From an uncultured Gammaproteobacteria bacterium (GTDB taxonomy: Bacteria > Pseudomonadota > Gammaproteobacteria > Steroidobacterales > JBCCMA01), in the NCBI GenBank assembly GCA_964639265.1, contig CAZXCL010000011.1, positions 9,362 to 73,361 of the forward strand: a stretch of 64,000 nt of DNA, given 5' to 3'. Shown one piece after another: positions 6,945 to 64,000 of this stretch. The notes below the pieces were generated by a model, which made no database searches, was not told where the DNA came from, and saw only the letters and a program-made list of their open reading frames with translations. Position numbers and translations under genes: made by a program. Positions within the stretch are counted from its first letter, which is position 1, and each line of letters opens with the position of its first letter.

Positions 6945-9900
6945 CGGGACGACGCCCCGCCCTTCAGGCTGTCCATAATCTTCAAAACACTAGTCATGCC
7001 GACCGCGATACCACCCAGATAGGTGATCCAGGTATCCACGACGTCGCGCTGCGTAAACCACAGAAACAGTAGCACCAGCAGAATCAGCCCCATCAGGACA
7101 CGCCGCATGTTGAAACCCGCGGTTTGCCCCGCCGATTCCAGCGCGTCAATTTCTTCTGCATCAAACACCGATGCCACATAGCGACCAAAGCTGTTGTTGA
7201 TCGGCTTGAGGACGGGATCCATACGCAGCAGTCCGCGGGCCAGAAGCGAACGTACAGCATTGACCTGCCGCGGGTTGACCACGCCTTCGCGGCTGAGCTG
7301 CGTCAAGACGATCTTTTCGTCAGTACTGCAGTTGTCCCACAGCGAACGGTAAAACCAATCGGCGCGCTTGCCGATTTCCTTGACCACCTCGCGCCGCGTA
7401 AGCGGCCGGGTCAGGGTAGTTTCATAGTCCGTGCCCATCAAACTGGACAGACCTGCGATGGCACCGAGCTCTTCGTTCAGCCAGTTTCTATCGGGCAACT
7501 GCGTGAGCGACGCCTTGGGCGCCAGCCGGCTCGAGAAGCCGCCGCGGATACTCACATCAACAGACTCGAACTCCGCCAAAATGCTGCGCCAACGCGCGCT
7601 CTCACCGTCATTCTCAAACGGGAACTCGATCAAGCGATGATCGTCTTCCTCGGTACGCTGGTCCTTGACCGCAGAGCGGGTCTTGGCGATCGGCACGCTG
7701 CTAAGAACAATGACGCGCCCGTGGGGCAGCTTTGAGAGTTTTTCGAGAACGCCCAGCACGCAACGACGCAGCGCGTCGTCGCGCAGCGCATCGCCCAGGT
7801 GGGTGCACAAAAGGGGCCTGTCGCCTTCAATTTTCTCCAGCTTTCGCAGCTGCCGCTTACTGGAGAGTCTGTAGACATCATGCGCTTCTGTGCTCTCGGT
7901 TATGAACGCGTATTGCGCGCGCGTGGCCAGTGTCGCAACGGTGTGTTTGCGTACATCATGTTCGACGATTTCCTCGACCGTCAACGAATCAGCATGCGCA
8001 TCAAGCTCGCCGTAAAACAGTCGTCGCGCGCCATAGGCAACCCAGGCCCACAGCAGACCAAGGCCCACGAACGCGCCAAGAACCAGAGCTCCACCAATCG
8101 GCAATAGAAACTCGGGCTCCAGACGAGTAATCGCAGGTCCACCTGCCTCATCGTCGAGTTGTTCCACTTCCTGATTTTCAGTCGACTTGGCGTCGTCGGG
8201 TATCTGCGTGTCAATGTAGCGCGCGTGCCGAGTCATCTCGTTGTATATAGGGAAGTGGCGATTCAAGCTATGCGTGAACCAGGTAAGCAGATTGTCGGCT
8301 TGTGCGTCTTTTGCAGGGCAAGACGCCTTTGAGCTCGCATCGTGTCCGCCGCGACGATACGACAGGTAGCACATGCGGCTTACACCCTCGACACTATAAA
8401 GATCCATCGCTCGATTTGTCAGGGCCTGAGCGCTCGTCGCGCCCTCAAACAACCCTTGCCCACCTTCGACCTTCTGAAACTGGTCTTGAAGTGCGTGCTG
8501 CCGAAAGTTGCGGGCACGTTCGGTGTAGCTTTTCTCAAGCGCCTGAAACACATTCAGCTCGCGCTCGTGAGCGATCTTGAAATAGCCAACCGCTGGGGGC
8601 ACTGCAATCACGAGCCATACCAGCATGGCGCGCAGCTGATAGCCACGAAGTCGATAGCGCCAGGATGACAGGGGCATCAACAAATAACAGACAAAGAACG
8701 CGATGAGGCACCACAGCGCCCAGGTTGGCGAATCAGCAAACCACACGACGCCAATAAAGATCGCCGCCGCGACAAGAATGGACCAGCGAACGGCACCGGC
8801 CACGACCACATCTCGCCGCCACGCCCACAACGTCACCAGAACAAGCAGCAGCAGAAACGCCATTGTCACGCGCGGAATGCCCTGCGCCCACATCTGCTGC
8901 GACTGTGCGCTGACGGCGAAGCAGCCGATGAGCGCGGCCATCAGAACCCAGCGCCCGAGCCGCTCCAGTGTTTTTGCATACTCACGCTTGAGCGCTTTGC
9001 CGGCACCTGCAAACAGCAGCACAACGACCGCAGCCTGCGGCAGAGCCAGCGACCACCACAGGCTTGGGCCCTCGAAAATGCTGACCGCTGTCAGTGATAC
9101 AAGCCCATACGCGACAAGCCACCAGCACCCGCCGCGAAAAAGCGCGATCCGGTCGCGATGTGGCCAGTGCGCGGCGGGCCATATCCAGCTCGGCGTCTCG
9201 CGCCCGTTGTTGGCCAGATAAAGACCGGTCAGCAATCCGAGTGCCAGAAGATGCAGCGCCACCATCAGCGTGGCTTGTGATAGAACCTCCACGCTGCTCG
9301 TGCGGCTGACGCTCGCGTTTTCGAACAGCACAATTGTCCAGGGAATATCGGCAAGCGGGCGAACATGAACGTAGTTGGCCTGGGTACGGTAGCGCCCGTC
9401 AAACGTCACCGTGGCCCTCGCGTGGATCGCCGCTTTGAGTCGATCAGCGATGCCTTCATCACGAAACAGGTTTTCGACCGTTGCGTGGCGCACATCGGAA
9501 TGGAACAAAGCCCTGCCGGTCGCGTTGTCGATAACGGCGTAGCTTACGCCGGGCGCCAGCACCTGATTGACCAGTGAAAGCGGCGTAAACGCCATTGCAA
9601 CACCCAGGCCCGCGTCATATTCTCGTGCCTCGACCTTAGGTATCTCGCCCGCGATGTCACGCCATTGATTGACCGAACGTGCTGATAGCGCCGCCGAAAA
9701 CTCACCGGTGGTGATCGACCGGAAAGACTGCACGAAAAAGTCACCACCCTGGTTTTCAACAGACCACAGCTCACGGTCGCGTACGGCCTGGTAATACTCG
9801 CGCTTGCCCACCGACACCATGGGTGTATTGGCATTGCGAGCGGAGGCTTTGAGCAACTGCATTCCGTTTTTCAGATTGATCAGAAAGACCTGAGAGAAAA

Positions 9901-14236: not shown

Positions 14237-17200
14237 ATGGCCGACGCGGCAGCGACCAACGACGATAACGCCTTCTCCTTCGTGGAGATGGAGCTTGAAA
14301 TCCTGAAGTTCTGGGAATCCGAGCAGGTGTTCCAGAAGTCTCTGGATAACACTCGCCACAAGAAGCCCTACATCTTCTATGACGGGCCGCCGTTTGCGAC
14401 CGGTTTGCCGCACCACGGGCACATCGTCGCCAGCACCATCAAGGACATCGTCCCACGCTACTGGACCATGAAGGGCCGCTACGTGATGCGCCGCTTCGGC
14501 TGGGACTGCCATGGCCTTCCCATCGAGCACGAGATCGACAAACAGCTGAACATGTCGGCGGCGCAGGCCGTCGAAGAGCTCGGCGTTGCCGGCTATAACG
14601 ATCAGTGTCGCGCGATCGTGCAGCGCTACGTGTCACAGTGGCGTGAGACCATCACCCGTCTGGGTCGCTGGATCGATTTTGATAACGACTACAAAACCAT
14701 GGATCTGGATTTCATGGAGTCGGTCTGGTGGGTGCTCAAGCAGCTCTGGGACAAGGGATTTGTGTATGAGGGCGTGAAGGTCATGCCGTTGTCCACCGCG
14801 CTTGGCACACCGCTGTCCAATTTCGAAGCCAACAGCAACTACATGGATGTGCAGGACCCGGCCGTGACGGTTCTGTTTGCGCTCGAAGAGGAAGACGCCT
14901 ATCTCACGGCCTGGACCACGACGCCCTGGACATTGCCCTCAAACCTGGCGGTGTGCGTTGGACCAGACATCGAGTACGTAAAGGTCAAGGACCCGTCGCT
15001 GGACAAGCCGGTCTACCTGGCTGCCGAACGTCTCGGAGACTATCTCAAAGAAGACGAGATCGAAATCCTCGCGCGCATGCCGGGCAAGGATCTGGTCGGT
15101 AAACGTTACACGCCGCTGTTCCCCTACTTTGCCGAACAGGCGGACAACGGCGCGTTCGTTGTGATTTCCGGCGACTATGTTACCACCGACAGCGGCTCAG
15201 GCCTGGTACATCAGGCACCCGCATTTGGTGAAGACGACTATCAGGCGTTTCGCGCTGCCGGGCTTGAGGCATTCGTTTGCCCCGTCGACATGAACGGCGT
15301 GTTCACTGACGAGGTCACCGACTTCGCTGGCATGCAGGTCAAAGACGCTGACAAGCACATCATTCGTTATCTCAAGGAACACGGCACGCTGTATCGGCAA
15401 GACACCATTCAGCATAGCTATCCGTTCTGCTATCGCTCCGACACGCCGCTGATTTATCGCGCCATTCCGTCGTGGTACGTGCGCGTCAGCGAGATGCACG
15501 AAAAACTCATCAACGCGAACCAGCAGGTGCGCTGGGTGCCTGATCACATCAAGGAAGGACGTTTCGGCAACTGGATTGCTGGCGCCATGGATTGGAGCAT
15601 TTCGCGTAACCGGGTCTGGGGTACGCCGCTACCCATCTGGATCAACGATGAGACCGGCAATCAGATCTGCGTCGGCTCCGTCGCCGAACTGGCCGAACTC
15701 ACCGGCACCACCGTGACCGATTTGCATCGCGAGCACGTCGATCCGTTGACGTTTACCAAGGACGGCGAGCCGGGCACCTATCGGCGCATCAGCGAAGTGC
15801 TCGACTGCTGGTTTGAATCCGGCTCCATGCCCTACGCGCAGCTGCACTATCCGTTTGAGAATCAGGACGTGTTTGAAGCAGGCTTCCCGGCAGAGTTTAT
15901 CGCCGAAGGTCTGGACCAGACGCGTGGCTGGTTTTACACCCTCACGGTGCTGGCCGCGGCGCTCTACGACAAGCCAGCGTTTAAAAACGTGATCGTCAAC
16001 GGCATGGTGCTGGCCGAAGACGGCAAGAAGATGTCGAAGCGCCTGCGCAACTACACCCCGCCCGATGACCTTATGAAATCGTTTGGCGCCGACGCGCTGC
16101 GTCTGTACCTGATTAATTCTGGGCTGGTGAAGGCCGAGGAACAGCGCTTTACCGACAGCGGTGTGCGCGATATGACCCGACGCGCACTCCTGCCAACCTA
16201 CAACGCTTTTTCATTCCTGAAGACCTACGCCGAGATTGATCAGTGGTCACCGGACAAAGGTCGCAAACGTGGCGACAACGTACTGGATCGCTGGATTCTC
16301 TCGCGCCTGCAGACGCTCAAGGCCAACGTAGCGCGTGAGATGGAAGCCTACCGGCTCTATAACGTGGTGCCGGAGTTGTTCGCGTTTATCGAAGATCTGA
16401 CCAACTGGTACATCCGACTGAACCGCACGCGCTTCTGGGGCAGCGGCATGGACGACGACAAGCTGGCTGCCTACAGCACCCTGTACGACACACTCAGCGA
16501 ACTGGCGACGGTTATCGCACCGTTCACGCCGTTCTTATCGGAGCATTTGTATCGCGAGCTGGCGAGCTTCGGCGGCGCCCGGCCCGCCCCGATTTCTGTT
16601 CATTTGTGTGACTATCCCGTGTCGGATGACGCGCTTGTTGACGATGCGCTGGAAGACGCGGTCGATCGGGCCCGTCAGGTGATTTTGCTTGGGCGACAAA
16701 AGCGCGAAGAGGCGAAGATCAGCCTGCGCACACCCCTGGCCTGCCTGACTATCGTGCATCGCGACGCGACCACACTCGAACAAATCAAGGCGCTCGAAGA
16801 CACCATCAAGGGTGAGCTCAACGTGCAGCAGGTGCGCTACGACACCCGCGAATCCGACTACATCGAGTTGGTGGCCAAACCCAACTTCCCGGTGCTCGGC
16901 AAGCGTCTGGGCAAGCGCATGAAAACCTTTGCCGCGGCAATCAAGCAGCTGAGCGCCGAGCAGATCGGGCAACTACAGAGCGCCGGCCGCATTGAGCTGG
17001 AGGGCGAGTCATTCGACACCAGCGAAATTGAGGTGCTGCAGCGGGCACGGCCGGGTACCAACGTAGTGTCTAACCGTCTGATTGCCGCGGACCTGGACTG
17101 CACCCTCACGCCTGAGCTCATTCGCGGCGGCTATGCCCGCGAGGTGCAAAACCGCATTCAGCAAACGCGCAAAGAAATTGGCCTGCATGTGGCCGACCGT

Positions 17201-52817: not shown

Positions 52818-53248
52818 TGTACAGATTCATGGCCAACGGCGACAGCCGCGGGTCTTGTTTAGCGGCCTGGCGCTGCTAACCGTCGGTAACGGCGGTAAAG
52901 GGATGCAGCAGTGCGTCCCGCCGAGGCATCGTCCCCGGTCACTCCAGGCAAGTCCGACCTCCCGAGTTCTCGATACGTCGGGAATAGCGGCGAAGCGATG
53001 CGCTTAACCCGCGTCGTTAGTCGCAAGAGGCAACGGATAGTGCACGTGTGCGAGCTTCGCAACCAAGCGCGCGTGTGCAGAAAGACGGGGGGCGGTGTGC
53101 AGCCGATGTCCTGTCTTTCCGTTTAGTAGCCGGCGGGCGAACGACAATCGACGGGCGGCCACCTTGTGGCCGCTTGTCACTCCAATGCACTGACTGCATG
53201 GTTTTTGCGAGACAGGACAATAACAAAACGAATACCGAGGAGAAATCG

Positions 53249-54658
53249 ATGTCATTTTTGCATGAAGTACAAAAAGTTTCGGACGCACACTACGTGCTAC
53301 CAAAGATCGGCGACATGCGTACCGAGGTGCACGCTTTTCTTTCGGACACGCTGTTTGCGCAAACGGACGAAGCGCTCTGGCGGCAAGCGGCTCGCGCGGC
53401 GGCCTACCCCGGCATGATCGGCCTGTACCTGATGCCGGACACTCACCTGGGTTACGGCATTCCTGTCGGCGGCGTGGCGGTGACCGAGGATGTGATCATT
53501 CAGGCCGGCAGCGGTTACGACATTTCGTGCGGTGTTGTGTATCTGAAGGTACCGGACCTGACAGCCGCAGACGTGGCAGACTGGGACCGCCGTCGCCGCT
53601 GGATCGATGAAGTAGAGCTGCGCATCGCCACCGGGCTTGGCAGCAATCGTCCCAAGCACATGCCGCGCCTTGCCGATACGAAGATCGAGGACATCTTCCG
53701 CTACGGCGCCCAAGCCATCGGTGTGCGCGCCGATGTATGTGAGCGACAGTATATTGACGTTGACGAAGAGGCCTTCGACACGGAACGCATCCAGCGGGCG
53801 CGCAGCAAAGCGGGCCCGCAGATCGGATCGGTCGGCGGCGGCAACCACTTCGTTGAGATGCAGGTGGACGTCAACGACGGCTCGGTGTGGGTCATGATTC
53901 ACTGCGGCAGTCGTGGCTACGGCTGGCAAACGGCGAATCACTACTTCTATGAAGGCGCGGCTCTTCGTGGACTGGCCAAGAACCGTCGCGAGGAATCATG
54001 GCTGCGCGTCGACGAACGGTTGGGACGCGAGTACTGGGCGCATCACAACTCGGCAGCGAACTACGCCGTGGCCAACCGGCACATTATTGTTCGGGGCGTG
54101 TGCAAGGCACTGGAGAATGTCTTCGATGCCAGCGGAGAGGTTTTTTACGAGATCTCACACAACCTCGTGCAGGAGGAAACGCTGGTGCTGCCCGACGGCA
54201 CGACGAAGAAAGGATTTGTTCACCGCAAAGGCGCAACTCGTGCGTTCCCGGCCGGACATCCTGATCTCAAGGGCACCAAGTGGGAGACCACCGGTCACCC
54301 CTGCCTAGTTCCCGGTTCGATGCTCGACGGTGCCGCTATTTTGTACCCGCTCAAGGGCGCCTACCAGTCCGGCTGTTCGGTCAATCATGGCTCTGGTCGG
54401 GTCATGGCACGCGGTCAGGCCAAGCGCGAACTGGCCGAAGTGCATGACGAGATCGACGATGAAATGCGCTACATCAAGCGTACGCTCGGTGGGGTCGAGA
54501 TTGAGGGCATTGTCGGCAATACTCGGCGCACGCCTCTGGATGAGTGCGGCCACGTCTACAAGGATCTGGACGAGGTGCTGAGCGTGCTTGAGACCGAAGG
54601 CATTGCACGCGTGGCAAACCGAATGTATCCGGTCGCCAACATCAAGGGCACCGATTAG
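53249..54658 (+). CDS. rtcB: RNA-splicing ligase RtcB
   Basis: 469 aa. Conserved His-rich metal sites (PDTHLGYGIPVGG, GGNHFVE, HNL, NHGSGR). Strong SD GAGGAGA 5 nt upstream. No rtcA or rtcR adjacent. Confidence 0.9.
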   Translation: MSFLHEVQKVSDAHYVLPKIGDMRTEVHAFLSDTLFAQTDEALWRQAARAAAYPGMIGLYLMPDTHLGYGIPVGGVAVTEDVIIQAGSGYDISCGVVYLKVPDLTAADVADWDRRRRWIDEVELRIATGLGSNRPKHMPRLADTKIEDIFRYGAQAIGVRADVCERQYIDVDEEAFDTERIQRARSKAGPQIGSVGGGNHFVEMQVDVNDGSVWVMIHCGSRGYGWQTANHYFYEGAALRGLAKNRREESWLRVDERLGREYWAHHNSAANYAVANRHIIVRGVCKALENVFDASGEVFYEISHNLVQEETLVLPDGTTKKGFVHRKGATRAFPAGHPDLKGTKWETTGHPCLVPGSMLDGAAILYPLKGAYQSGCSVNHGSGRVMARGQAKRELAEVHDEIDDEMRYIKRTLGGVEIEGIVGNTRRTPLDECGHVYKDLDEVLSVLETEGIARVANRMYPVANIKGTD

Positions 54659-54671
54659 CAGGGCATCCATT

Positions 54672-54696
54672 GGGCCGGGGCATCAGGTCCCGGCCC
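54672..54696 (+). terminator. GC hairpin (GGGCCGGG-9 nt-CCCGGCCC) 14 nt after the rtcB stop, lacking a U-tract
   Basis: Perfect 8-bp stem read directly. Possible rtcB terminator or stabiliser. Confidence 0.4.
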
Positions 54697-54821
54697 ATCC
54701 CGGAAAACGACACATCTCTCGCAAAAAGATCACACCCAGATAACAACAAGACCGGCCGCAGAGCCTAGACTTGCTGCGTGGTTCGTGAGCCATGACTGCG
54801 GGGAACGATGTGTTCTGGATC

Positions 54822-54863
54822 CACTATCACATGTAATATCTTGTGTTATTACATGTGATAGTG
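54822..54863. promoter_or_regulatory. perfect 17-bp inverted repeat CACTATCACATGTAATA-N8-TATTACATGTGATAGTG (candidate operator) immediately upstream of the yjfI-pspA-like operon
   Basis: Read directly. AT-rich, 13 bp upstream of the first possible start codon (54876). Size and symmetry are typical of a dimeric transcription-factor operator. Confidence 0.55.
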
Positions 54864-54875
54864 TAAACTTCTGTC

Positions 54876-55505
54876 ATGGTTGTGAAAACATCTGCTCATT
54901 ATCAGCGCGAATATCGGCGCAGACTGCGTGAAAAAGGTCTGATCAAGAAGGAAATCTGGATTCGCCCGGAGAACACTGACAAGGCCCGGGAGCTGGAAAA
55001 AACCCTGCGCTGCAGCGCCGACGACTTTTCGGCCAAAGCGGCGAGCATGCAGCGGCCCAAGTGGCTCACCTCCAACCTGTTCGCCGAACTTTGCACATCC
55101 CCGCTGATTCAATCGCAAAGAGCGACGGCTGAGCTCATCGAGGGCGTCGATCCAACCATCCTGGTCGTGATGCACGAGTACGGCGATCTGCCGCTGTTCG
55201 TCACCGTGGCAGGCGATCAGATCATCGCAGAAGCGGTGCTGTGGCCGACCTCTCACGTACGCGACTTCGCTGCGTTCAACGAAACCGTTCTGCGAACGCA
55301 CAAGTTCTTTCCGTTGTCGACGGTTTGCCTGAGTAAACGTACCGACGACGACTACTACCTGATGTTCGGATCGCTGGGTGCAAGCTCAGACTTGTCCGAC
55401 ATCGTTTATGAAATCGAGATTCTGGCAAGCAATGTCATACACGCAACAGAAGCGTATGCAGACATGCTCGACGCCACACCTTCAGAGAAAGGAGAAGCAC
55501 TATGA
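54876..55505 (+). CDS. DUF2170 (YjfI-like) protein with about 57-aa N-terminal extension (alternative start at 55047)
   Basis: C-terminal about 150 aa match the YjfI/DUF2170 pattern (MHEYGDL…, DDYYLMFGSLGASSDLSDIVYEIEIL). The N-terminal extension KKEIWIRPENTDKARELEKTL is AT-richer and looks like a strand-helix DNA-binding motif. Stop overlaps the pspA-like start (ATGA). Confidence 0.6.
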   Translation: MVVKTSAHYQREYRRRLREKGLIKKEIWIRPENTDKARELEKTLRCSADDFSAKAASMQRPKWLTSNLFAELCTSPLIQSQRATAELIEGVDPTILVVMHEYGDLPLFVTVAGDQIIAEAVLWPTSHVRDFAAFNETVLRTHKFFPLSTVCLSKRTDDDYYLMFGSLGASSDLSDIVYEIEILASNVIHATEAYADMLDATPSEKGEAL

Positions 55506-56194
55506 ATATGTTGGCAAAGATGATCACCGCACTGCGCGGAGGCGTCAATGAGGCCGGGGAGGCTATTGTCGATAGCCAGGCCCTGCGCATCCTGGATCAG
55601 GAATTGCGCGACGCTGCCGATGAACTAAAGCAATCCAAGGACAGTCTCGCCGCAATCATCGCTCGGGAAAAAGTTTCCAATGAAAAGTCCGGTCGCCTCA
55701 AAGAGAAAATTGAGGAACACGAAGGCTACGCCGTCAAGGCCCTGGACAAAGGCGACGAGACGCTCGCGCATGATGTTGCAACGAAAATTGCAGAGCTCGA
55801 AGCGCAACTGAAAACCGAGGAACAAACCGGCGCCGGTTATACCGCCAGCGCCAATGATCTTCGCGCTGCTATTCAGGCCGCTGAGCGCGACATCACGCGC
55901 ATGAAGCAGCAGGTCGATACGGTTAAAGCCACCGAAAGCGTGCAGCGCGCCCAGGCCGCCGTGTCCGAGCGCCACAGCGGTTCGAATTCGAAGCTGCGCA
56001 CGGCTGTCGACTCGCTTGAGCGTATTAAGGAAAAGCAGGAGCTTCGTTCGGCAAAAATGAACGCCGCACGGGACCTTTCCAGCGATTTGGGGGCAGAGTC
56101 ACTGGACAATCGGCTGGAAAGCGCAGGCATCAAATCTCGCGGCGCCAATGCCGAAGACGTGCTCGCACGATTGAAGAAAAAGGCCAGCAGCTAA
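55502..56194 (+). CDS. PspA/IM30 (ESCRT-III-like) family protein, YjfJ-like
   Basis: 230-aa coiled-coil protein. Pattern …DTVKATESVQRAQAAV… and C-terminal AEDVLARLKKK match the YjfJ/PspA family from memory. Confidence 0.75.
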   Translation: MNMLAKMITALRGGVNEAGEAIVDSQALRILDQELRDAADELKQSKDSLAAIIAREKVSNEKSGRLKEKIEEHEGYAVKALDKGDETLAHDVATKIAELEAQLKTEEQTGAGYTASANDLRAAIQAAERDITRMKQQVDTVKATESVQRAQAAVSERHSGSNSKLRTAVDSLERIKEKQELRSAKMNAARDLSSDLGAESLDNRLESAGIKSRGANAEDVLARLKKKASS

Positions 56195-56208
56195 GGCAAA
56201 GGTAAGCA

Positions 56209-56910
56209 ATGTTTGCGATTTTCCTGACCGAGGGGATGAACCCCTTCTACCAGAACATCAGCTCATTCCCGACGCTGATCTATACGATCCTGCTTGTGGT
56301 CTGCGTGATCTACTGGGCGGGTGCCGTATTGGGACTGATCGACCTCGAGGTTCTGGATCTTGGCATTGAAGGATTTGATACGTCCGGCGATATCAGCGGA
56401 GACGTCGGTGGCGATTCACCGCACTCAACACCGGATGTATTGGCCGGTCTCCTCCTGCGCTTCGGCCTGGTCGGGGTCCCGCTGACTATATCGCTTTCCA
56501 TCATTGTCCTGATCGGCTGGTTGCTGTGCTACTACGTCGTGCACTTTGTCTTCCCCTACGTGCCCGGTAGCTTGCTGAAGCTTGCCGCCGGCGTACCGGT
56601 CTTGCTTGCGACGCTGTACATCGCCGCTCACATAACGGGCGTGGTGATACGACCGCTGCGCCCGCTGTTTGCAAAGGCGACTCAGGACACGATCAAACAC
56701 GTGCTGGGACAAACCGCCATCGTTCGAACCTCGCGCATCGACAACGATTTTGGCGAAGTGAATCTGGACGACGGTGGCGCGGGGCTGATTTTGAAAGCAC
56801 GCACCACCGGGGACGACCGCTTCGTAAAAGGCGACAAAGTCGTCATCCTCGAAATGCTCGAAGACCAAAATGTTTATCGAGTGATTTCGGAACAAGAATT
56901 TCTCGGGTAA
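56209..56910 (+). CDS. NfeD-like (YqiJ-like) inner-membrane protein with C-terminal OB-fold
   Basis: Several TM helices followed by GQTAIVRTSRIDNDFGEVNLDDGGAGLILKARTTGDDRFVKGDKVVILEMLEDQNVYRVIS, the characteristic NfeD beta-barrel. Immediately upstream of the flotillin gene. Confidence 0.65.
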   Translation: MFAIFLTEGMNPFYQNISSFPTLIYTILLVVCVIYWAGAVLGLIDLEVLDLGIEGFDTSGDISGDVGGDSPHSTPDVLAGLLLRFGLVGVPLTISLSIIVLIGWLLCYYVVHFVFPYVPGSLLKLAAGVPVLLATLYIAAHITGVVIRPLRPLFAKATQDTIKHVLGQTAIVRTSRIDNDFGEVNLDDGGAGLILKARTTGDDRFVKGDKVVILEMLEDQNVYRVISEQEFLG

Positions 56911-56948
56911 ACACCCCGTAAAAACGAATAACTGAGGGAGCAATAACT

Positions 56949-58787
56949 ATGGCCGATCTATCCGTACTAATGCCTGTGGTAACAGGCGCGGGAATATTCA
57001 TTCTCGTCTTGCTTGGGCTTGCCGGCCTGTTCAAGGCTTTCTATTACAAGGTTGAACAGGGCACAGCGCTTATCGTCAACGACATGAGCTCCCGTCCGAA
57101 GGTGCATTTCACTGGCGCGCTGGTGTATCCGATCATCTACAAGAAAGAGCTGATGAAAATCTCGCTCATCACGCTGGAGGTGGATCGCCGCGGAGCAGAC
57201 GGACTGATCTGCCAAGACAACATGCGCGCCGACATTTCCGTTGCTTTTTACCTGCGCGTCAACGAGACCGCGGAAGACGTATTGAAGGTCGCCAAGTCCA
57301 TCGGCGCGAGCCGTGCTTCGGACCAGGACGCCGTAGATCAGTTGTTCTCAGCCAAATTCTCAGAAGCACTGAAAACAGTGGGCAAGCAGGTTGAGTTCGT
57401 GTCCTTGTTTGAAAATCGTCAGGAGTTTCGCGAAAAGATCATCGAAGTCATCGGCGATGATCTGAATGGCTACGTCCTCGAAGACGTCGCGATTGACTAT
57501 CTGGAGCAAACACCCAAGTCGTCACTCGACCCAACCAACATTCTTGACGCCGAGGGCATCAAGAAGATTACCGAACTCACCGCCACTCAGAACGTTCGTA
57601 CCAACGAACTTGAGCGCGATGAAGAGCTCGCCATCAAGAAGAAGAACGTCACGACTGTAGAAGCCATGCTTGAGCTCGAACGCCAGCAGGCGGATGCCGA
57701 AGCGCGTCAACAGCGCGAGATTCTCTCGATCCAGGCCCGTGAAGAGGCCGAGACCAAGAAGGTGCAGGAAGAAGAACGTCGCAAAGCCGAGACGACGCAC
57801 ATCCAGGTGGAGCAGGATCTGCAGGTGCAGACTGAAAACCAGAAACGCGAAGTTGAGGTTGCCGAGCAAAACAGACAGCGCGCCGTCGCGATCGAGCAAG
57901 AGAAGGTGACTCGCGCACGGGACCTCGAGATAGTCAGTCGTGAGCGCGAGGTTTCCGTCGAGCAGGTGCTGGCTGAGAAAGCCGTCGAAGTTGAGAAGAA
58001 GGAGATTGCGAACGTGATTCGTGAGCGCGTTGCTGTCGACAAGACAGTGGCCGTTGAGGAAGAGCGCATCAAGGAGGTACGCGAGGTCTCTGAAGCCGAT
58101 CGCCAGAAACAGGTGCAGATACTGACCGCTGAGGCCGATGCCGAAGAAGAGAAAGTCAAAGAGACCACCGCTGCCAAAGCCCAGGAGATCGCTGCCAATC
58201 ACAAGGCATCCGAAATCACGACGCTGGCCGAGGCGCGACTGGCCGCTGCGGCGAAAGACTCCGACGCCAAGAAAGTACTGGCCGAAGGTATTCAGGCCGA
58301 AGATGCCGCGACCGGCCTTGCCGAAGCCGACGTTATTCGCGCCAAGGGCACGGCGGATGCCTCCGCCAAGACCGAGGTAGGTATGGCGACCGCAAGCATC
58401 ACCAAAGCACAGTTCCAGGCCGAAGCTGAGGGTCTGTCAGATAAATTTGCGGCGATGGCCAACATGACGGGCGAGACGCGCGAGCATGAGGAATTCCGCA
58501 TGTCGCTTGAAACAGCCTTCAAAGAAGCGCTGGCGTCAATTGATGCCGGTAAGGAAATCGCCAAGGAAAACGCCGAGATCCTGGCCATCGCACTGCAGAA
58601 GGCGCACATCGACATCGTGGGTGGCGAGGCGCAGTTCTTTGATAACTTCGCCAAGTCGCTGTCCATCGGCAAAGCCGTTGACGGTCTCGCCGAGAAAAGC
58701 GAAGTGGTGCAGACGCTGCTGGCGAAGTTCCTGCCGGCCAACGGTATCGACGTCGCACGTAGCAACGGTGACGGCGCGGCCAGCTAA
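56949..58787 (+). CDS. flotillin-like SPFH/band-7 family protein (YqiK-like)
   Basis: N-terminal TM. SPFH core (…KISLITLEVD…CQDNMRADISVAFYLRV…). Very long Glu/Ala/Lys/Arg-rich coiled-coil stretch (EA repeats). 612 aa. Confidence 0.85.
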   Translation: MADLSVLMPVVTGAGIFILVLLGLAGLFKAFYYKVEQGTALIVNDMSSRPKVHFTGALVYPIIYKKELMKISLITLEVDRRGADGLICQDNMRADISVAFYLRVNETAEDVLKVAKSIGASRASDQDAVDQLFSAKFSEALKTVGKQVEFVSLFENRQEFREKIIEVIGDDLNGYVLEDVAIDYLEQTPKSSLDPTNILDAEGIKKITELTATQNVRTNELERDEELAIKKKNVTTVEAMLELERQQADAEARQQREILSIQAREEAETKKVQEEERRKAETTHIQVEQDLQVQTENQKREVEVAEQNRQRAVAIEQEKVTRARDLEIVSREREVSVEQVLAEKAVEVEKKEIANVIRERVAVDKTVAVEEERIKEVREVSEADRQKQVQILTAEADAEEEKVKETTAAKAQEIAANHKASEITTLAEARLAAAAKDSDAKKVLAEGIQAEDAATGLAEADVIRAKGTADASAKTEVGMATASITKAQFQAEAEGLSDKFAAMANMTGETREHEEFRMSLETAFKEALASIDAGKEIAKENAEILAIALQKAHIDIVGGEAQFFDNFAKSLSIGKAVDGLAEKSEVVQTLLAKFLPANGIDVARSNGDGAAS

Positions 58788-58799
58788 GGACTCCCCTCT

Positions 58800-61700
58800 A
58801 TGGCAGCTGAAAAAACAGACAGCGCGATCGTTGATAGCGCCGTCGCCGAGGGCGGCGCGTACGAGATCATTCGCCAGCGCCTGGTCGAACAGGGCGAGCA
58901 GCTCAAGGAAAAGACGGCTGCTTTGAACGCGGCGCGCGCAGAGGAATTCGGATCCACGGACATGGAGGTCCTCGCCCGAACCCGCATCCGCACCGACAAC
59001 AACTGCCGCGGCCGCGCCATCGTGCAGGTTGGCGACATGCTCCTGTTCGGATACAACGTGTTCATCGGCTTGAAAAAAGCCACCCAGATCACGGACGTAT
59101 TCGCCCTGTACCGCCTGTCGCTCGATGGCGACGCCTATTCCATGGAACCGCAGTCGCTGGATGGTACGTTCCTTGCGGACAAGAAGTTTCAACACGACTT
59201 TGACGAACTCTACCGATACTACAAGGACACGCGTCTGACCCAGCTTGTAAAGCGCGATGGGCGACTGCTGGCCGGGTTTCAGATTGGTGAGCGTATCGAC
59301 GATATACGCGTGTTTCGCTGGGCCATCTCGGACGATGCGTCCGAGTTGACCTACATCGACAATCGAGGCGAGCGGGACATTGAGCTTCCCGAACCCTACG
59401 ATTTCGAGTGGCACGACGTTGGTCGTGACGACATCGTGCACGGCCGGTTCCCCCACATCAGCCTCGATGACGAAGTATTCATTGAGACCATCAACGGCGA
59501 TCTGACCGTCAAGATCGAGGACAACACTGAGAATGGCGAGGGCATTTATTCAGAGCACGTGGAAGACGCCACCCAGTCCCTGGATGATGCCGAAATTGCC
59601 TATGCCCGAGTAGGCGACCTTGTACTGATCAAGGTACTGCCTTACAAGGAAAAGCAGTGGCGCCATCTGGTATTCAACCGGCGCTCGCAGGACGTCGTAC
59701 GCATCGATGAGATCGGCAGTTCCTGCGTGCAGCTGCCCGAGGACCACGGCATTATTTTCCCCGGCGGATACTATCTTGAGTCCGGCGACTACAAGACTTT
59801 TCCGATCAGCACCGACGGGTTCAAATTCAAGCGCAAGATTCGCTCGCCCATTGGCGAAGACGTGCTGTTTGTGTTCTATGAGCCCGAAGACGGCCTGTTC
59901 ACCCTGCTCTCATACAATCTCATTGAGAAATCGCTGCAAAATCCGATCGTGACCAACGGCTACGCCCTGGCCGACGACGGACGCATCGCCGTGTTTAATG
60001 CGGAACCTGAACCGACGCGCATCCACCCAATGCAGGTGTGGAAGACGCCGTACGTGCACGAGGAGTTCACCGCCAAGGCGCCCACCACGCAGTCGTTTTA
60101 CTCCAATATTGGCAATGCGGAACTGGTGCGGGGCGTATCCGATCTGTACAGCGTGTGCCGCGATATCGGCGATGAAACCGTCTCGGTGCGAAGCTACGAA
60201 AAACTCAGAAGAACGGCCATGCGGTTGTTCGATGATCATTTCTGGATTGCCGATGAGGCCACCGAAGGCATCGGCGACACCGTCCGCACCATCAACGACA
60301 CCGTCGAACTGATTATCGATGAGTTTGAGAAGGTCGAGAGCATTCGTCGGCAATCTGCGGAGGCCATCAACGACGCACGCGGCGAGCATCAACAAATACT
60401 GGCCACCTCCGATCCATCGGGCTGGCGTCGCGTTGACGATTTTGTGTCGGCCCTGGATCGCATTCGCAAGCAACGTGGTCATCTGACAACGATCAGAGAC
60501 TACCGGTACATCGACATCGCCGCGATTAACGCCATGGACACCGAGCTCGTTGAGCTAAACGCTCGGATTGGCGAACAGACCGCCATTTTTCTCGCTGACG
60601 ACAAGGCACTGGCGACCTATGTCGATGACATAGACAACATCCGGGCTGAAATCAGTTCTCTGGAAACCGTGGCCGCGCTTGATCCGCAGCTCGAGCGACT
60701 CGAGTCAATCGCCGAGGGCCTCGATCTGCTTTCCGAGCTGGTAGCAACACTTAAAATCGACGACGCTACAGTACAAACGCGCATCGTCAGCTCGATCTCT
60801 GACGTTTACTCCAATATGAACCAGACGCGGGCGGTCTGCAGACGGCGTCGGGATCAGCTCGGATCGGCCGAGTCCATCGAGCAGTTTGCCGCGCAGCTCA
60901 AGCTGTTCTCGCAGAACATTATCAATTCGCTCGGTCTTGCCACAACACCCGAGCGTTGCGACGATCAACTGGCGAAACTCCTGATTCAGCTGGAGGAAAT
61001 GGAGGGCCAGTTTGGCGATCACGAGCAGTTTCTCGCCGACATCATGGCCAAGCGCGACGAGGTCAACGATACGCTCGAAGCGCACAAGCAAGAGCTGCTG
61101 GACGCTCGCAATTCCCGGGTTCAGGGTCTGGCCGATGCGATTAATCGCATGCTGCAAAACGTGGAGAAGCGTACACAACGCTTCAGAACCGAAGATGAGC
61201 TCAACACCTATCTTGCCTCCGATCCGCTGCTGCTAAAGATTCGGGATCTGGTCGCCCAGCTGCGTGAGCTCGACAGTGCGGTCAAGGCCGACGACGCCGA
61301 AGCGCGGCTGAAAATGATTCGCGATCAGGCCGTCCGCGCACTGCGCGACAAGATCGACCTGTACGACGAATCCGGCACCGTCATCCAGCTTGGGCCACGT
61401 CACAAATTCAATATCAGCAAGGAAGAGCTGGACCTGACCATCATTCCCAGGGACGAGGGACTGGCCCTGCACCTGGTCGGCACCAGGTACTTCGAGAAAA
61501 TTGACCATGAGGCGCTGACCGATCTCAAGCCCTACTGGAAACTGGCTACCGAATCTGAGTCGCCGGACGTATATCGGGCCGAGTATCTGGCGTATCGAAT
61601 AATAGAGGCGGCTCAGTCCGGCACGGACAGTTTGAGCTGGCCAACACTGTCATCGGCCATTGGCAAGCAAGACACTCTCGAGAAGCTGGTCAGAGACTTC

Positions 61701-64000
61701 GCTACGCCCCGATATCGGGACGGCTATGAACGCGGCGTCCACGATGCAGACGCCTGCACGCTTCTGCGCGCGATTGTGCCAACTATCGACAACGGCGATT
61801 TACTGCGCTTCAGCCCGCTTGATCGAGGTTTGGCTCAGGTGATCTGGCTCAACATGCAGGACGCGGATGATGCGCCGGCGCTATTGACGAGTCTTGCCGA
61901 AAGAGCGCAGTCGGCATGGCAGATGCACGCGCTGTTCGGCAAGCGCAGCGGCATTGCACTGGTGGAGGAAGAAGTGCTTGGCTATGCCAGCTCTATTGCC
62001 GAGGACCACGATCTGGAACTCGAACCGGCTACCCTGAGTCGAGCCATACGCTATCTGGTGGCCGAGCTTGGTCGTACGTCGCTGGCGTTTATCGGCTCGA
62101 AAAACGCCGCCGAGCTGTTGTCGATGCTGAAAACGGCATTGCGTCCTGAGGCCCTGAAAGAGCTTAACGAGTCCATAAACAAACTCGAAGGCGCGGCAGG
62201 CGAACAGTGGCGCCTTGCCAATGCCTGGCTGACCGCCATGCTCGAATCAGCCGACAAGCCCGATCTGATGCACTTCATTCCGGAGGCGGCCGCTCAGCTT
62301 ATCGCAGGCAAAAAACTGCCCCGCAGACCGTCGAAGTTTGATACGACAATTGAAGTCGATGAGCTGTTTGGCGAGCACGGGAACATTCTGGACGGTCGAA
62401 TGCGTTTCTCACTCGATCAGTTCCTGGATCGCCTGCAGGACCACACCGATCGTGTGGTCCCGGGTTACAGGCACTACCGCACTTTGCGCCGCAAGGTGGC
62501 GGACGATGCGCGCGCCGATCTCAAGCTGGATGAATTCAAGCCAAGGCCGTTGAGCTCGTTTGTTCGCAACCAGCTCATCAATGACGCGTATCTGCCGCTC
62601 ATCGGCGACAACCTGGCCAAACAGATCGGAACCGCAGGCGAGTCGAAACGATCAGATCTGAGCGGGCTGCTGATGATGATCTCACCACCTGGCTACGGCA
62701 AGACGACGCTCATGGAGTATGTGGCAAGCCGTCTCGGGCTGACGTTTATGAAAATCAACGGCCCCGCGCTTGGACACGACGTAACCTCGCTCGATCCCGC
62801 CATGGCGCCCAACGCGACGGCCAGGCGCGAGCTTGAAAAAGTTAACCTCGCGCTTGAGATGGGCGACAACGTCATGCTCTATCTCGATGACATACAACAT
62901 GCCAGTCCGGAGTTCCTGCAGCGCTTTATCTCGCTGTGCGACGCGACACGACGCATCGAAGGTGTCTGGAAAGGTCGTACACGAACCTACGATCTGCGCG
63001 GCCGCAAGTTCTGCGTCGTCATGGCCGGCAACCCGTACACAGAGTCCGGTGAGACGTTCCGCGTACCCGATATGCTTGCCAACCGGGCCGACATCTACAA
63101 CCTTGGCGATGTTCTGTCCGGGAAGGAACGTCAGTTCGAACTGAGCTACATCGAGAACTGCCTGACCTCCAACCCGGTGCTCGCACCGCTGGCCACCAGA
63201 GACATGGCGGATGTATACAAGTTCGTGGACGGGGCCAAAGGGCAGGAGGTGGTCGCTACGGATCTCTCACACACCTACAGCGGTGCCGAGATCGCGGAAA
63301 TCACACGTCTGCTCGAGCGACTGCTTCAGGTCCAGGACGTCGTACTCAAGGTCAATCGCCAGTACATCGCATCGGCCGCGCAGGAAGACCAGTACCGCAC
63401 CGAACCTCGCTTCCTGCTGCAGGGCAGTTATCGCAACATGAACAAGCTGGCTGAGAAAGTGTCGGCCGTGATGACCGATGACGAACTCAACGACGTGATC
63501 GATGATCACTACCGCGGCGAGGCACAGCTCCTCACCCAAGGCACCGAAGCCAACTTGCTCAAACTTGCGGAGCTTCGCGATACGCTGGACGTGGACAGCC
63601 AGAAACGATGGGAAAGCATCAAAAGAGACTTCCTGCGCAACAAGGCCTTTGGCGGCGATGACGCTGACACTGGCCAACGGATCGTCGCACAACTGTCTGA
63701 CCTGGTTGAGAACATCAGCAGACTAGGCGTCGATCATGGCGCTCACAATGCATCGGCGCAGTTGATCAGCAGCTCGCTTGAAAAGCTGGGCGACGCGGTT
63801 GCGCAGCAAAAAACCACGGTCTCGGTCACCAGCAAGCCGTCGGAAGAATTTCAGCAGGTACTGACCGTGCTCAACGACACGATTGAAAACACACTTTTCC
63901 CGCTGGTGCGCAGCATGGACAAACGCATTGCGCTGGATTTGGCAGCACGAGATCAACTGCAGAAACTATCGCAGGAGGTTGAGGCGCTCAAACGGATGGA
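58800..64000 (+). CDS. giant (more than 1730 aa, 3' end beyond window) protein with central/C-terminal dynein/MoxR-type AAA_5 ATPase domain, downstream of the flotillin gene
   Basis: Single uninterrupted frame from ATG 58800 (SD AAGGA) to the window end. Walker A ISPPGYGKTT, Walker B VMLYLDD, sensor-2 FRVPDMLANRADI (about aa 1290-1440). Long coiled-coil segments in between. N-terminal about 450 aa has no recognisable motifs. Confidence 0.7.
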   Translation, partial: MAAEKTDSAIVDSAVAEGGAYEIIRQRLVEQGEQLKEKTAALNAARAEEFGSTDMEVLARTRIRTDNNCRGRAIVQVGDMLLFGYNVFIGLKKATQITDVFALYRLSLDGDAYSMEPQSLDGTFLADKKFQHDFDELYRYYKDTRLTQLVKRDGRLLAGFQIGERIDDIRVFRWAISDDASELTYIDNRGERDIELPEPYDFEWHDVGRDDIVHGRFPHISLDDEVFIETINGDLTVKIEDNTENGEGIYSEHVEDATQSLDDAEIAYARVGDLVLIKVLPYKEKQWRHLVFNRRSQDVVRIDEIGSSCVQLPEDHGIIFPGGYYLESGDYKTFPISTDGFKFKRKIRSPIGEDVLFVFYEPEDGLFTLLSYNLIEKSLQNPIVTNGYALADDGRIAVFNAEPEPTRIHPMQVWKTPYVHEEFTAKAPTTQSFYSNIGNAELVRGVSDLYSVCRDIGDETVSVRSYEKLRRTAMRLFDDHFWIADEATEGIGDTVRTINDTVELIIDEFEKVESIRRQSAEAINDARGEHQQILATSDPSGWRRVDDFVSALDRIRKQRGHLTTIRDYRYIDIAAINAMDTELVELNARIGEQTAIFLADDKALATYVDDIDNIRAEISSLETVAALDPQLERLESIAEGLDLLSELVATLKIDDATVQTRIVSSISDVYSNMNQTRAVCRRRRDQLGSAESIEQFAAQLKLFSQNIINSLGLATTPERCDDQLAKLLIQLEEMEGQFGDHEQFLADIMAKRDEVNDTLEAHKQELLDARNSRVQGLADAINRMLQNVEKRTQRFRTEDELNTYLASDPLLLKIRDLVAQLRELDSAVKADDAEARLKMIRDQAVRALRDKIDLYDESGTVIQLGPRHKFNISKEELDLTIIPRDEGLALHLVGTRYFEKIDHEALTDLKPYWKLATESESPDVYRAEYLAYRIIEAAQSGTDSLSWPTLSSAIGKQDTLEKLVRDFATPRYRDGYERGVHDADACTLLRAIVPTIDNGDLLRFSPLDRGLAQVIWLNMQDADDAPALLTSLAERAQSAWQMHALFGKRSGIALVEEEVLGYASSIAEDHDLELEPATLSRAIRYLVAELGRTSLAFIGSKNAAELLSMLKTALRPEALKELNESINKLEGAAGEQWRLANAWLTAMLESADKPDLMHFIPEAAAQLIAGKKLPRRPSKFDTTIEVDELFGEHGNILDGRMRFSLDQFLDRLQDHTDRVVPGYRHYRTLRRKVADDARADLKLDEFKPRPLSSFVRNQLINDAYLPLIGDNLAKQIGTAGESKRSDLSGLLMMISPPGYGKTTLMEYVASRLGLTFMKINGPALGHDVTSLDPAMAPNATARRELEKVNLALEMGDNVMLYLDDIQHASPEFLQRFISLCDATRRIEGVWKGRTRTYDLRGRKFCVVMAGNPYTESGETFRVPDMLANRADIYNLGDVLSGKERQFELSYIENCLTSNPVLAPLATRDMADVYKFVDGAKGQEVVATDLSHTYSGAEIAEITRLLERLLQVQDVVLKVNRQYIASAAQEDQYRTEPRFLLQGSYRNMNKLAEKVSAVMTDDELNDVIDDHYRGEAQLLTQGTEANLLKLAELRDTLDVDSQKRWESIKRDFLRNKAFGGDDADTGQRIVAQLSDLVENISRLGVDHGAHNASAQLISSSLEKLGDAVAQQKTTVSVTSKPSEEFQQVLTVLNDTIENTLFPLVRSMDKRIALDLAARDQLQKLSQEVEALKRM

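Follow-up and report, generated by a model that had tools for sequence, protein, structure and literature searches.

A predicted envelope-stress operon that combines PspA, a flotillin, and a giant AAA+ ATPase in an uncultured gammaproteobacterium

INTRODUCTION

What does a giant ATPase do when it is encoded directly behind a PspA protein and a flotillin, and which of the two does it serve? The question is raised by a 64,000-nt stretch of DNA from contig CAZXCL010000011.1 of an uncultured gammaproteobacterium with Woeseiaceae among its relatives, referred to here as the window. The region 54822 to 64000 of this window carries, all on the plus strand and in the order A to E, genes for a DUF2170 protein, a PspA homolog, a YqiJ-type membrane protein, a YqiK-type flotillin, and a giant ATPase. 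The operon class has been connected with biofilm formation and with virulence in Pseudomonas aeruginosa and is the most obvious setting in which to study how PspA polymers, which are ESCRT-III-like, and flotillin cages form and are recycled without an equivalent of Vps4. A first-pass annotation made from the sequence had described the cluster as a composite operon encoding a novel bacterial machine for membrane repair or remodeling, with the giant acting on PspA as an AAA ATPase acts on ESCRT-III. Here, we find that the composite operon with its giant AAA_5-type ATPase is real, that it belongs to a published class, and that its gene linkage points to the flotillin scaffold as the fixed partner of the ATPase. 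The control region in front of gene A points to a mode of regulation that differs from the published model.

RESULTS

Five co-directional genes make up the operon

Gene A (54876-55505; 209 amino acids [aa]) encodes a BacA/YjfI-like protein with a DUF2170 domain and overlaps by 4 nt (ATGA) gene B (55502-56194; 230 aa), whose product is of the PspA/IM30 family and the YjfJ type. After a gap of 14 nt follows gene C (56209-56910; 233 aa) for a YqiJ-type, NfeD-like multipass membrane protein, after a further 38 nt gene D (56949-58787; 612 aa) for a YqiK-type flotillin of the SPFH family, and after another 12 nt gene E (58800-64000) for a BacE-like, predicted cytoplasmic giant ATPase. These open reading frame coordinates agree with the earlier description of four contiguous genes on one strand with tiny gaps or overlaps. 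The giant had been placed 13 nt behind D with a good Shine-Dalgarno sequence; the sequence AAGGA is present and overlaps the stop codon of D, but the gap is 12 nt.

The reading frame of E extends over 1,733 codons without a stop and had been thought to run off the window. Two metagenome contigs, 99.6 to 99.9% identical to the window, encode exactly the same D protein, and on these contigs E is complete at 1,734 to 1,735 aa, with an oppositely oriented gene behind it. The window therefore lacks only the last 2 of 1,735 codons and the stop codon, and the contig extension that the annotation had proposed yields a full giant of 1,735 aa on the 99.9%-identical contig. Given the orientation of that gene, the operon here has five genes, with no co-directional sixth gene. 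Inside the cluster, a scan of positions 54500 to 59000 found no promoter- or terminator-like sites on the plus strand beyond the level of shuffled sequence. The spacing of the five genes is operon-like, and the identity of the cluster as an operon of the membrane- or envelope-stress kind is close to certain.

The products of genes A to D belong to the YjfI, PspA, YqiJ, and YqiK groups

Protein A matches Pfam DUF2170 (1.5e-45), a CesT/Tir-chaperone-like domain, and is matched over its full length by the NCBIfam model NF050185 for BacA at 265 bits. The equivalog cutoff of 300 is not reached, and A is a BacA homolog that we do not call an equivalog. It consists of an N-terminal basic domain of 46 aa, a variable linker, and DUF2170, and only the DUF2170 part aligns with Escherichia coli YjfI (35% identity). 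Protein B matches Pfam PspA_IM30 (1.1e-43) and shares 36% identity with E. coli YjfJ along its full length (E value, 1e-37). The arrangement by which the class is recognized, a DUF2170 gene directly followed by a PspA_IM30 gene, is present, the two genes sharing 4 nt.

Proteins C and D gave no Pfam match even at an E value of ≤10 and none in NCBIfam, and neither single sequences nor family profiles found anything in the PDB. Their labels come from aligning them directly with YqiJ and YqiK of E. coli. BLASTP aligned C with YqiJ over 96 aa (E value, 2e-4), and a profile of 28 sequences of the C family aligned with YqiJ over 150 columns with an hhalign probability of 92% (E value, 5.7e-7); the C terminus of C is an OB-like soluble domain. 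Protein D is 30% identical to YqiK over 439 aa (BLASTP E value, 4e-47) in an alignment that covers the Band_7 region and reaches into the beginning of the Flot region, and it has an N-terminal membrane anchor and a long helical region rich in E, A, and K. E. coli YqiK itself matches Pfam Flot and Band_7, and YqiJ matches YqiJ_N and YqiJ_OB. All four labels proposed in the first-pass annotation were thus borne out by Pfam, BLASTP, and hhalign. Its statement that E. coli keeps the two gene pairs at separate loci was also right, as yqiJK lies at 3.19 Mb and yjfIJ at 4.41 Mb in strain K-12.

Even at an E value of ≤10, none of the current Pfam models for Band_7, Flot, NfeD, and YqiJ picks up the flotillin/YqiJ subfamily found here, and domain-based censuses of SPFH proteins will undercount it.

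The giant ATPase carries a predicted β-propeller and a MoxR-like AAA+ module

Full-length homologs of the 1,735-aa protein E are consistently 1,590 to 2,036 aa long. The parts of E come in the order N-terminal helix, β-propeller, helical or coiled-coil middle, MoxR-like AAA+ module, and C-terminal helices. The predicted β-propeller corresponds to Pfam DUF3686 (residues 35 to 481; window, 58902-60242; 1e-196, 654 bits), and DUF7902 (residues 602 to 685; 60603-60854; 2.2e-26) lies within the helical, coiled-coil-like stretch. A conserved AAA+ module, defined by Pfam, motifs, and an AlphaFold2 (AF2) model, occupies residues ~1245 to 1625 (62532-63674). Here, AAA_5 scores 28.5 bits against a cutoff of 22 (residues 1291 to 1414) and the AAA model is also above its gathering score, with E values of about 2e-6. 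The giant had earlier been taken for a protein of no named family but carries DUF3686, DUF7902, and AAA_5; its family name is Pfam DUF3686/DUF7902, and databases call it a "DNA repair ATPase." No paper came up in a literature search for DUF3686. The profile and structure searches suggested at the time thus upheld the AAA_5/MoxR-type assignment and not the unnamed family. Similarly, the picture of an AAA_5 domain set in long coiled coils fits the helical middle, but the N-terminal 480 aa form a predicted β-propeller. More than 4,210 homologs of E were scored, and a search with the N-terminal domain gave 766 clusters at 50% identity; the closest named relatives, at 82% identity, are from Woeseiaceae and other uncultured Gammaproteobacteria.

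The motifs singled out in the first-pass annotation (PPGYGKTT, LYLDD, and FRVPDMLANRADI) are all found in E. Walker A is GYGKTT (residues 1298 to 1303), Walker B is LYLDD (1360 to 1364), sensor 1 is N1411, and R1429 is a candidate arginine finger. Walker A, N1411, and R1429 are invariant in alignments of 18 and 47 family members. Walker B reads LYLDD (D1363 and D1364) in 47/47 aligned members and departs from the DE consensus, so the usual catalytic glutamate is replaced by aspartate. The replacement lies in LYLDD-IQH (residues 1363 to 1367; 62886-62900), and the stretch NPYTESGETFRVPDMLANR that follows Walker B resembles the MoxR pattern.

The AF2 models cover the end domains of E, on either side of residues 540 to 1180. 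The N-terminal model has a helix at residues 20 to 50 followed by a β-propeller-like domain, and the model of residues 1180 to 1733 has a mean predicted local distance difference test score of 67, with 70 to 90 in the ATPase core. Foldseek with the ATPase model gave MCM, NorQ (of the MoxR family), and CbbQ as the best matches, followed by ClpB and Cdc48, with MCM and NorQ ranking above Cdc48 and Vps4 by small margins. The modeled ATPase domain is thus best matched, at weak scores, by MoxR/NorQ-like rather than Vps4-like folds. A PDB profile search with E found similarity in the P-loop only, and the P-loop stretch by itself resembles Cdc48/katanin (E value, ~0.02 to 0.3). On inspection by eye, the stretch from Walker A to Walker B showed no aromatic-hydrophobic-Gly pore-loop motif, and Pfam detected no MIT, VWA, nuclease, DNA-binding, or transmembrane element in E. 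The PADLOC profile for LmuB gave a weak match to residues 540 to 887 (E value, 7.7e-6).

The flotillin pair is always next to the giant, and the PspA pair is not

Scanning one genome of each species for conserved E peptides turned up at least 577 loci. We kept 80 close relatives and searched them with the five window proteins; 66 of these loci have at least 6 kb of sequence upstream of the giant. Homologs of C and D are directly upstream of the giant in every one of the 66. In contrast, A and B are both present at 44 of them, only one of the two at 3, and neither at 19. Since the C-D pair is linked to the giant at 66/66 loci and the A-B pair is absent from 19/66, the gene content argues that the flotillin scaffold is the fixed partner of the ATPase and that PspA is an add-on. 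The linkage that the annotation had proposed to follow through related genomes is therefore complete for the flotillin and partial for PspA. More distant members from a plasmid collection have a flotillin followed by the giant in Streptomyces; a YqiJ-like gene, a flotillin-like gene, and then the giant in Deinococcus; and all five genes in Hymenobacter. The flotillin-giant core therefore recurs in Actinomycetota, Deinococcota, and Bacteroidota, and the gene order is stable across many genera.

The gene that follows the giant varies among the related loci and encodes a rhomboid protease at 15, a phospholipase D (PLD)-like protein at 7, and an unassigned coiled-coil protein at 8 loci of the Xanthomonadales type; examples of such genes are found at loci L007, L008 (15250-15822), L010, L013, and L054 (15367-16074). 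In Pseudomonas paraeruginosa (L024), the sixth gene is PLD-like, of the bacF type (15207-15911).

No homolog of the giant was found in 50,697 phage records, and among 72,556 plasmid records there are only 13 with a homolog, most of them megaplasmids or chromids. A mobile-element or defense origin of the cluster was considered and rejected, given the lack of phage matches, the few plasmid matches, and profile matches limited to weak ones for LmuB, JetC, and PbeC.

A conserved palindrome pair overlaps a putative promoter of gene A

Immediately upstream of gene A, at 54822-54863, lies a perfect 17-bp inverted repeat, CACTATCACATGTAATA-N8-TATTACATGTGATAGTG, which is a candidate operator. It contains two copies of the palindrome TYACATGTRA (54827-54836 and 54849-54858), and these are the only matches with up to one mismatch in the window. 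The palindrome is found between -200 and +30 of the start of A at 39 of 46 loci, in two or more copies at 28, while there are 4 other copies in 1.12 Mb of flanking DNA of the same loci and none upstream of C at the 19 loci without A and B. This distribution ties the palindrome to gene A.

A putative sigma-70-type promoter on the plus strand (54841-54869) consists of a -35 element, TTGTGT (54841-54846), a 17-nt spacer that contains the second palindrome, and a -10 element, TAAACT (54864-54869), with the ATG of gene A 6 nt past the -10. The same promoter/operator layout is found at 27/27 loci anchored on the start codon, where the -35-like box is often TTGACA, the spacer is 16 to 18 nt, and the -10 ends 6 to 7 nt before the ATG; at most of these loci, the proximal palindrome is centered at -21 to -25 and the distal one at -44 to -47. 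A strict promoter scan does not call the proposed site, and the proposal is therefore based on cross-species conservation. A sigma-54 promoter for gene A was ruled against, since no match to the consensus TGGCAC-N5-TTGCW with up to 2 mismatches occurs between 52208 and 55777. The arrangement points to a repressible sigma-70-type promoter with a predicted leaderless mRNA, in contrast to the published sigma-54 model. Elsewhere in the window, TGGCACTCGGATTGCT (9231-9246, minus strand) is a perfect match to the sigma-54 consensus and the only one without a mismatch.

The N-terminal domain of A is a candidate repressor domain

The conserved basic domain at residues 1 to 46 of A (54876-55013) follows the pattern M..KSSAHYQR..R.RLREQGLVKKEVWILPE...E..LR, with 15 invariant and 5 nearly invariant positions in 17 sequences, and is followed by a variable linker. 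It is missing in E. coli YjfI and in the chaperone of Hymenobacter, and their genes are not preceded by the palindrome. The domain gives weak matches to the MazE-like antitoxin family PF11455 in 11/17 members, and A gives a weak match (0.0044) to the NCBIfam model for the UrfF plasmid repression protein. The crystal structure of BacA has a CesT-like fold of 139 residues (PMC10948618), and PA3732 was described as a 16-kDa protein (PMC2587700). It appears that the crystallized 139-aa BacA lacked the N-terminal domain and that the published work on BacA probably used a short annotated form. The combination of operator pair, leaderless promoter, and N-terminal domain of A, as read from these alignments, appears not to have been reported before.

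An internal methionine just before DUF2170 is probably the explanation for the shorter annotated starts. A second assembly of the same population (L001, 99.9% identical) carries a 1-nt deletion in gene A at about position 6539 (window, about 55278) that frameshifts the DUF2170 domain, and gene A is called as 151 aa there. The deletion may be an error of the assembly, or else a natural variant in which the putative repressor has lost its function.

The operon is preceded by a gene for an RtcB RNA ligase

A gene for an RtcB RNA ligase (53243-54658; Pfam, 2.8e-87) lies on the same strand 217 nt upstream of gene A and was not counted in the operon. It is itself preceded by genes for an ArsR-type helix-turn-helix protein and for AHSA1, DUF2200, and Uma2 proteins.

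DISCUSSION

The operon class of a CesT/Tir-PspA pair with YqiJ, a flotillin, and a giant AAA+ ATPase was described by Ravi et al. in 2024 (PMC11237479; preprint 2020), and the passages of that study on this class state that abbreviated flotillin-YqiJ(-ATPase) operons are more widespread, which agrees with our counts at 66 loci. Our way to an experimentally studied relative was the match of A to the NCBIfam family "biofilm formation regulator BacA," which led to the bac cluster of P. aeruginosa. PA3732 to PA3729 were described by Mace et al. in 2008 (PMC2587700), and reverse transcription-PCR showed that bacABCDEF (PA3732 to PA3727) is transcribed as a single unit (Wallart et al. 2024, PMC10948618). 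This unit includes the gene for the giant, bacE, which is annotated in strain PA14 as a predicted DNA repair ATPase (PA14_16190). The novelty that the first-pass annotation had claimed for the machine is thereby lost. The membrane repair or remodeling role that it proposed has fared better and is still the best reading of the gene content. The stress induction published for P. aeruginosa fits this role: osmotic shock (PMC2587700) and membrane-active toxins of staphylococci (bioRxiv 2023.01.29.526047) both raise the level of the PspA homolog PA3731, and the transcripts of PA3728 to PA3732 increased in all phage-infected samples (PMC12041424).

The explanation that we favor, as a probable but by no means settled one, is that of an envelope-stress operon of this published class that works in five steps. 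Transcription would start at the sigma-70-type promoter whose -10 element ends 6 nt before the ATG and would give a leaderless mRNA. Protein A would repress this promoter, its N-terminal basic domain binding both TYACATGTRA palindromes, the distal one immediately before the -35 element and the proximal one in the spacer. The CesT-like DUF2170 domain of A would bind B, and B that is free or engaged at the membrane would feed back on repression in a partner switch. By homology, B is expected to form ESCRT-III-like polymers on a stressed inner membrane, and D, together with the NfeD-like C, a membrane-anchored SPFH/flotillin cage. Finally, as gene linkage and domain content suggest, E would oligomerize through its MoxR-like AAA+ module and engage the C-D flotillin assembly with its β-propeller and long helical arms, and PspA secondarily where it is present, so that ATP could drive the assembly, disassembly, or client loading of these partners. 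For the regulatory part, a bacA transposon mutant overproduced BacB to BacF 6- to 13-fold (PMC10948618), and AlphaFold2 predicts a BacA-BacB complex with a probability of 0.98 (PMC13092808). Taken together with the N-terminal domain, these two results suggest as the simplest model that A represses its own operon and that the chaperone domain couples repression to the state of PspA.

A more specific proposal is tentative, and we hold it to be possible rather than likely. According to this proposal, the giant would be the first ATP-driven machine dedicated to remodeling a bacterial flotillin (SPFH/NfeD) cage, and PspA polymers would serve it as a second, optional client. In the BacA-like protein, a DNA-binding domain and a CesT-like chaperone would be combined into a new type of regulator that represses a leaderless sigma-70 promoter and is released when PspA occupies or vacates the chaperone domain. 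Both ideas agree with all of the evidence obtained here.

Several observations weigh against the favored explanation. A PDB profile search with the N-terminal domain of A gave matches at chance level only, and its role in DNA binding is that of a candidate drawn from subthreshold family matches and from co-occurrence. The overexpression in the bacA::Tn mutant could be an effect of transcription reading out of the transposon. With an aspartate pair in Walker B, hydrolysis by E may be slow, or E may be a nucleotide-gated scaffold, and the Foldseek scores behind the AAA+ clade assignment are weak (E values of 3e-5 and weaker, low template modeling scores). The 80 loci are the closest relatives (at least 47% identity) and mostly from Proteobacteria, so that the linkage counts describe this set and are not a full census. 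In P. aeruginosa, deletion of the flotillin PaFlo3 reduced biofilm by only ~20%, with no further clear phenotype (PMC13086221).

The main alternative is that the giant is a dedicated Vps4-like remodeler of PspA polymers for which the flotillin and the NfeD-like protein provide only a platform, which is in essence what the first-pass annotation had proposed. PspA and the ATPase do share an operon here and at 44 of the 66 related loci, the passages of Ravi et al. that deal with PspA-AAA+ associations raise the ESCRT-III/Vps4 analogy (PMC11237479), and reviews describe bacteria as having no known equivalent of Vps4 (PMC7619361). However, the PspA and DUF2170 genes are not adjacent to the ATPase at 19/66 loci or in Streptomyces and Deinococcus, where the flotillin is always present. 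In addition, the modeled AAA+ fold and the motifs appear closer to MoxR/NorQ than to the classical clade, no aromatic pore loop was seen by eye, Pfam finds no MIT domain, and the N terminus is a predicted β-propeller. Gene linkage, AAA+ clade, and the missing MIT domain all weaken the analogy, and a dedicated partnership with PspA is unlikely, although it is the strongest of the alternatives. A purely structural role would fit the Walker B aspartates in all 47 aligned members and the presence of a single AAA+ module in 1,735 residues that otherwise offer long helices and a β-propeller of the protein-binding kind. E would then be a tether or scaffold with a regulatory nucleotide site that links flotillin cages to other cytoplasmic partners. 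The invariance of the Walker A, sensor-1, and arginine-finger positions would be surprising if nucleotide turnover were unimportant, and we regard this reading as improbable.

Two further readings take the cluster away from envelope maintenance. The induction of PA3728 to PA3732 in every phage-infected sample (PMC12041424), the varying sixth gene (PLD-like, rhomboid, or other), which resembles effector swapping, and the frequency of giant ATPases in defense systems would be expected of an abortive-infection-type system with the giant as sensor or motor and the membrane proteins and swappable sixth gene as effectors. The stable gene order is unlike that of typical defense islands, though, and the operon is also induced by osmotic and toxin stress. 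Homologs are absent from the phage records and rare in the plasmid records, and PADLOC gave only a weak LmuB match to E and weak JetC, LmuB, and PbeC matches to B; a defense role thus has, in our estimate, about the same small chance as the structural one. The least plausible reading, to which we give hardly any credence, is the one implied by the database names. Pfam describes DUF3686 as an "ATPase involved in DNA repair," NCBI uses "DNA repair ATPase," and E weakly matches the RuvB P-loop and the LmuB profile, so that E might act on DNA and its membrane-gene neighborhood be incidental. The RuvB matches cover ~45 residues around the P-loop, however, the LmuB match falls in the helical middle, no nuclease or DNA-binding domain was detected in E, and we found no paper with experimental evidence of DNA repair. 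Furthermore, the flotillin/YqiJ linkage holds at 66/66 loci and in several phyla, and the bac giant is cotranscribed and coregulated with PspA and a flotillin.

Since the operon class is published, the window adds only another member to it. What is added here is a quantified, flotillin-centered linkage and an operator/leaderless-promoter/N-terminal-domain model for BacA. Three of the results could give experiments a sharper focus. The ATPase appears tied to flotillin/NfeD rather than to PspA, and it is a MoxR-like protein with a predicted β-propeller and an unusual aspartate pair in Walker B. The operator pair in a putative sigma-70 leaderless promoter conflicts with the published sigma-54 model, and the likely repressor is the overlooked N-terminal domain of BacA.

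The class of Ravi et al. has the same gene set as the window; that work is purely comparative, and its passages on the class do not mention the N-terminal domain of A, the operator, or the promoter. The closest experimentally studied system, the bac operon, for which experiments have demonstrated cotranscription, induction by stress, and negative control by BacA, has the same order of A, B, C, D, and giant, and in P. paraeruginosa (L024), the proteins are 47% (A), 54% (B), 38% (C), 60% (D), and 54% (E) identical to those of the window. The palindromes and the promoter layout are also the same there, followed at the end by the PLD gene; the sixth gene bacF, which encodes a PLD/HKD hydrolase, has no counterpart in the operon of the window. 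The published model for bac is sigma-54 dependent, whereas the sequences of both the window and L024 fit an operator-controlled sigma-70 promoter and a leaderless mRNA. E. coli has homologs of A-B in yjfIJ and of C-D in yqiJK, but the pairs are 1.2 Mb apart and without a giant ATPase, and yjfIJ sits with polyamine-related genes, YjfI having neither the N-terminal domain nor the operator motif upstream. In Bacillus subtilis, pspA-ydjGHI likewise encodes PspA together with an SPFH protein and membrane partners and functionally links a flotillin-like scaffold to the recruitment of PspA to the membrane; as far as the relevant passages of that study go, it encodes neither an AAA+ ATPase nor a DUF2170 protein, and the membrane partners are different (Scholz et al. 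2021, PMC8581546).

The classical Psp system (pspF-pspABC) is sigma-54 dependent, and the window operon differs from it in that its proteins contain no PspB, PspC, or PspF domains and that there is no sigma-54 site upstream. With the MoxR ATPases NorQ, CbbQ, and RavA, E has in common the AAA_5 match and, for NorQ and CbbQ, the Foldseek ranking. MoxR proteins are about 300 aa long and work with a VWA-domain partner. E differs in its 1,735 aa, its predicted β-propeller, and its Walker B aspartates, and Pfam found no VWA domain in the five operon proteins. The pairing of an SPFH scaffold with an AAA+ enzyme is known from HflK/C-FtsH and from mitochondrial SLP2-PARL-YME1L. Unlike the enzymes of these assemblies, E lacks both a protease domain and transmembrane segments, and it carries an AAA+ module of the MoxR rather than the FtsH type. 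The rhomboid protease encoded as the sixth gene at 15 related loci, on the other hand, echoes the SLP2-PARL-YME1L assembly.

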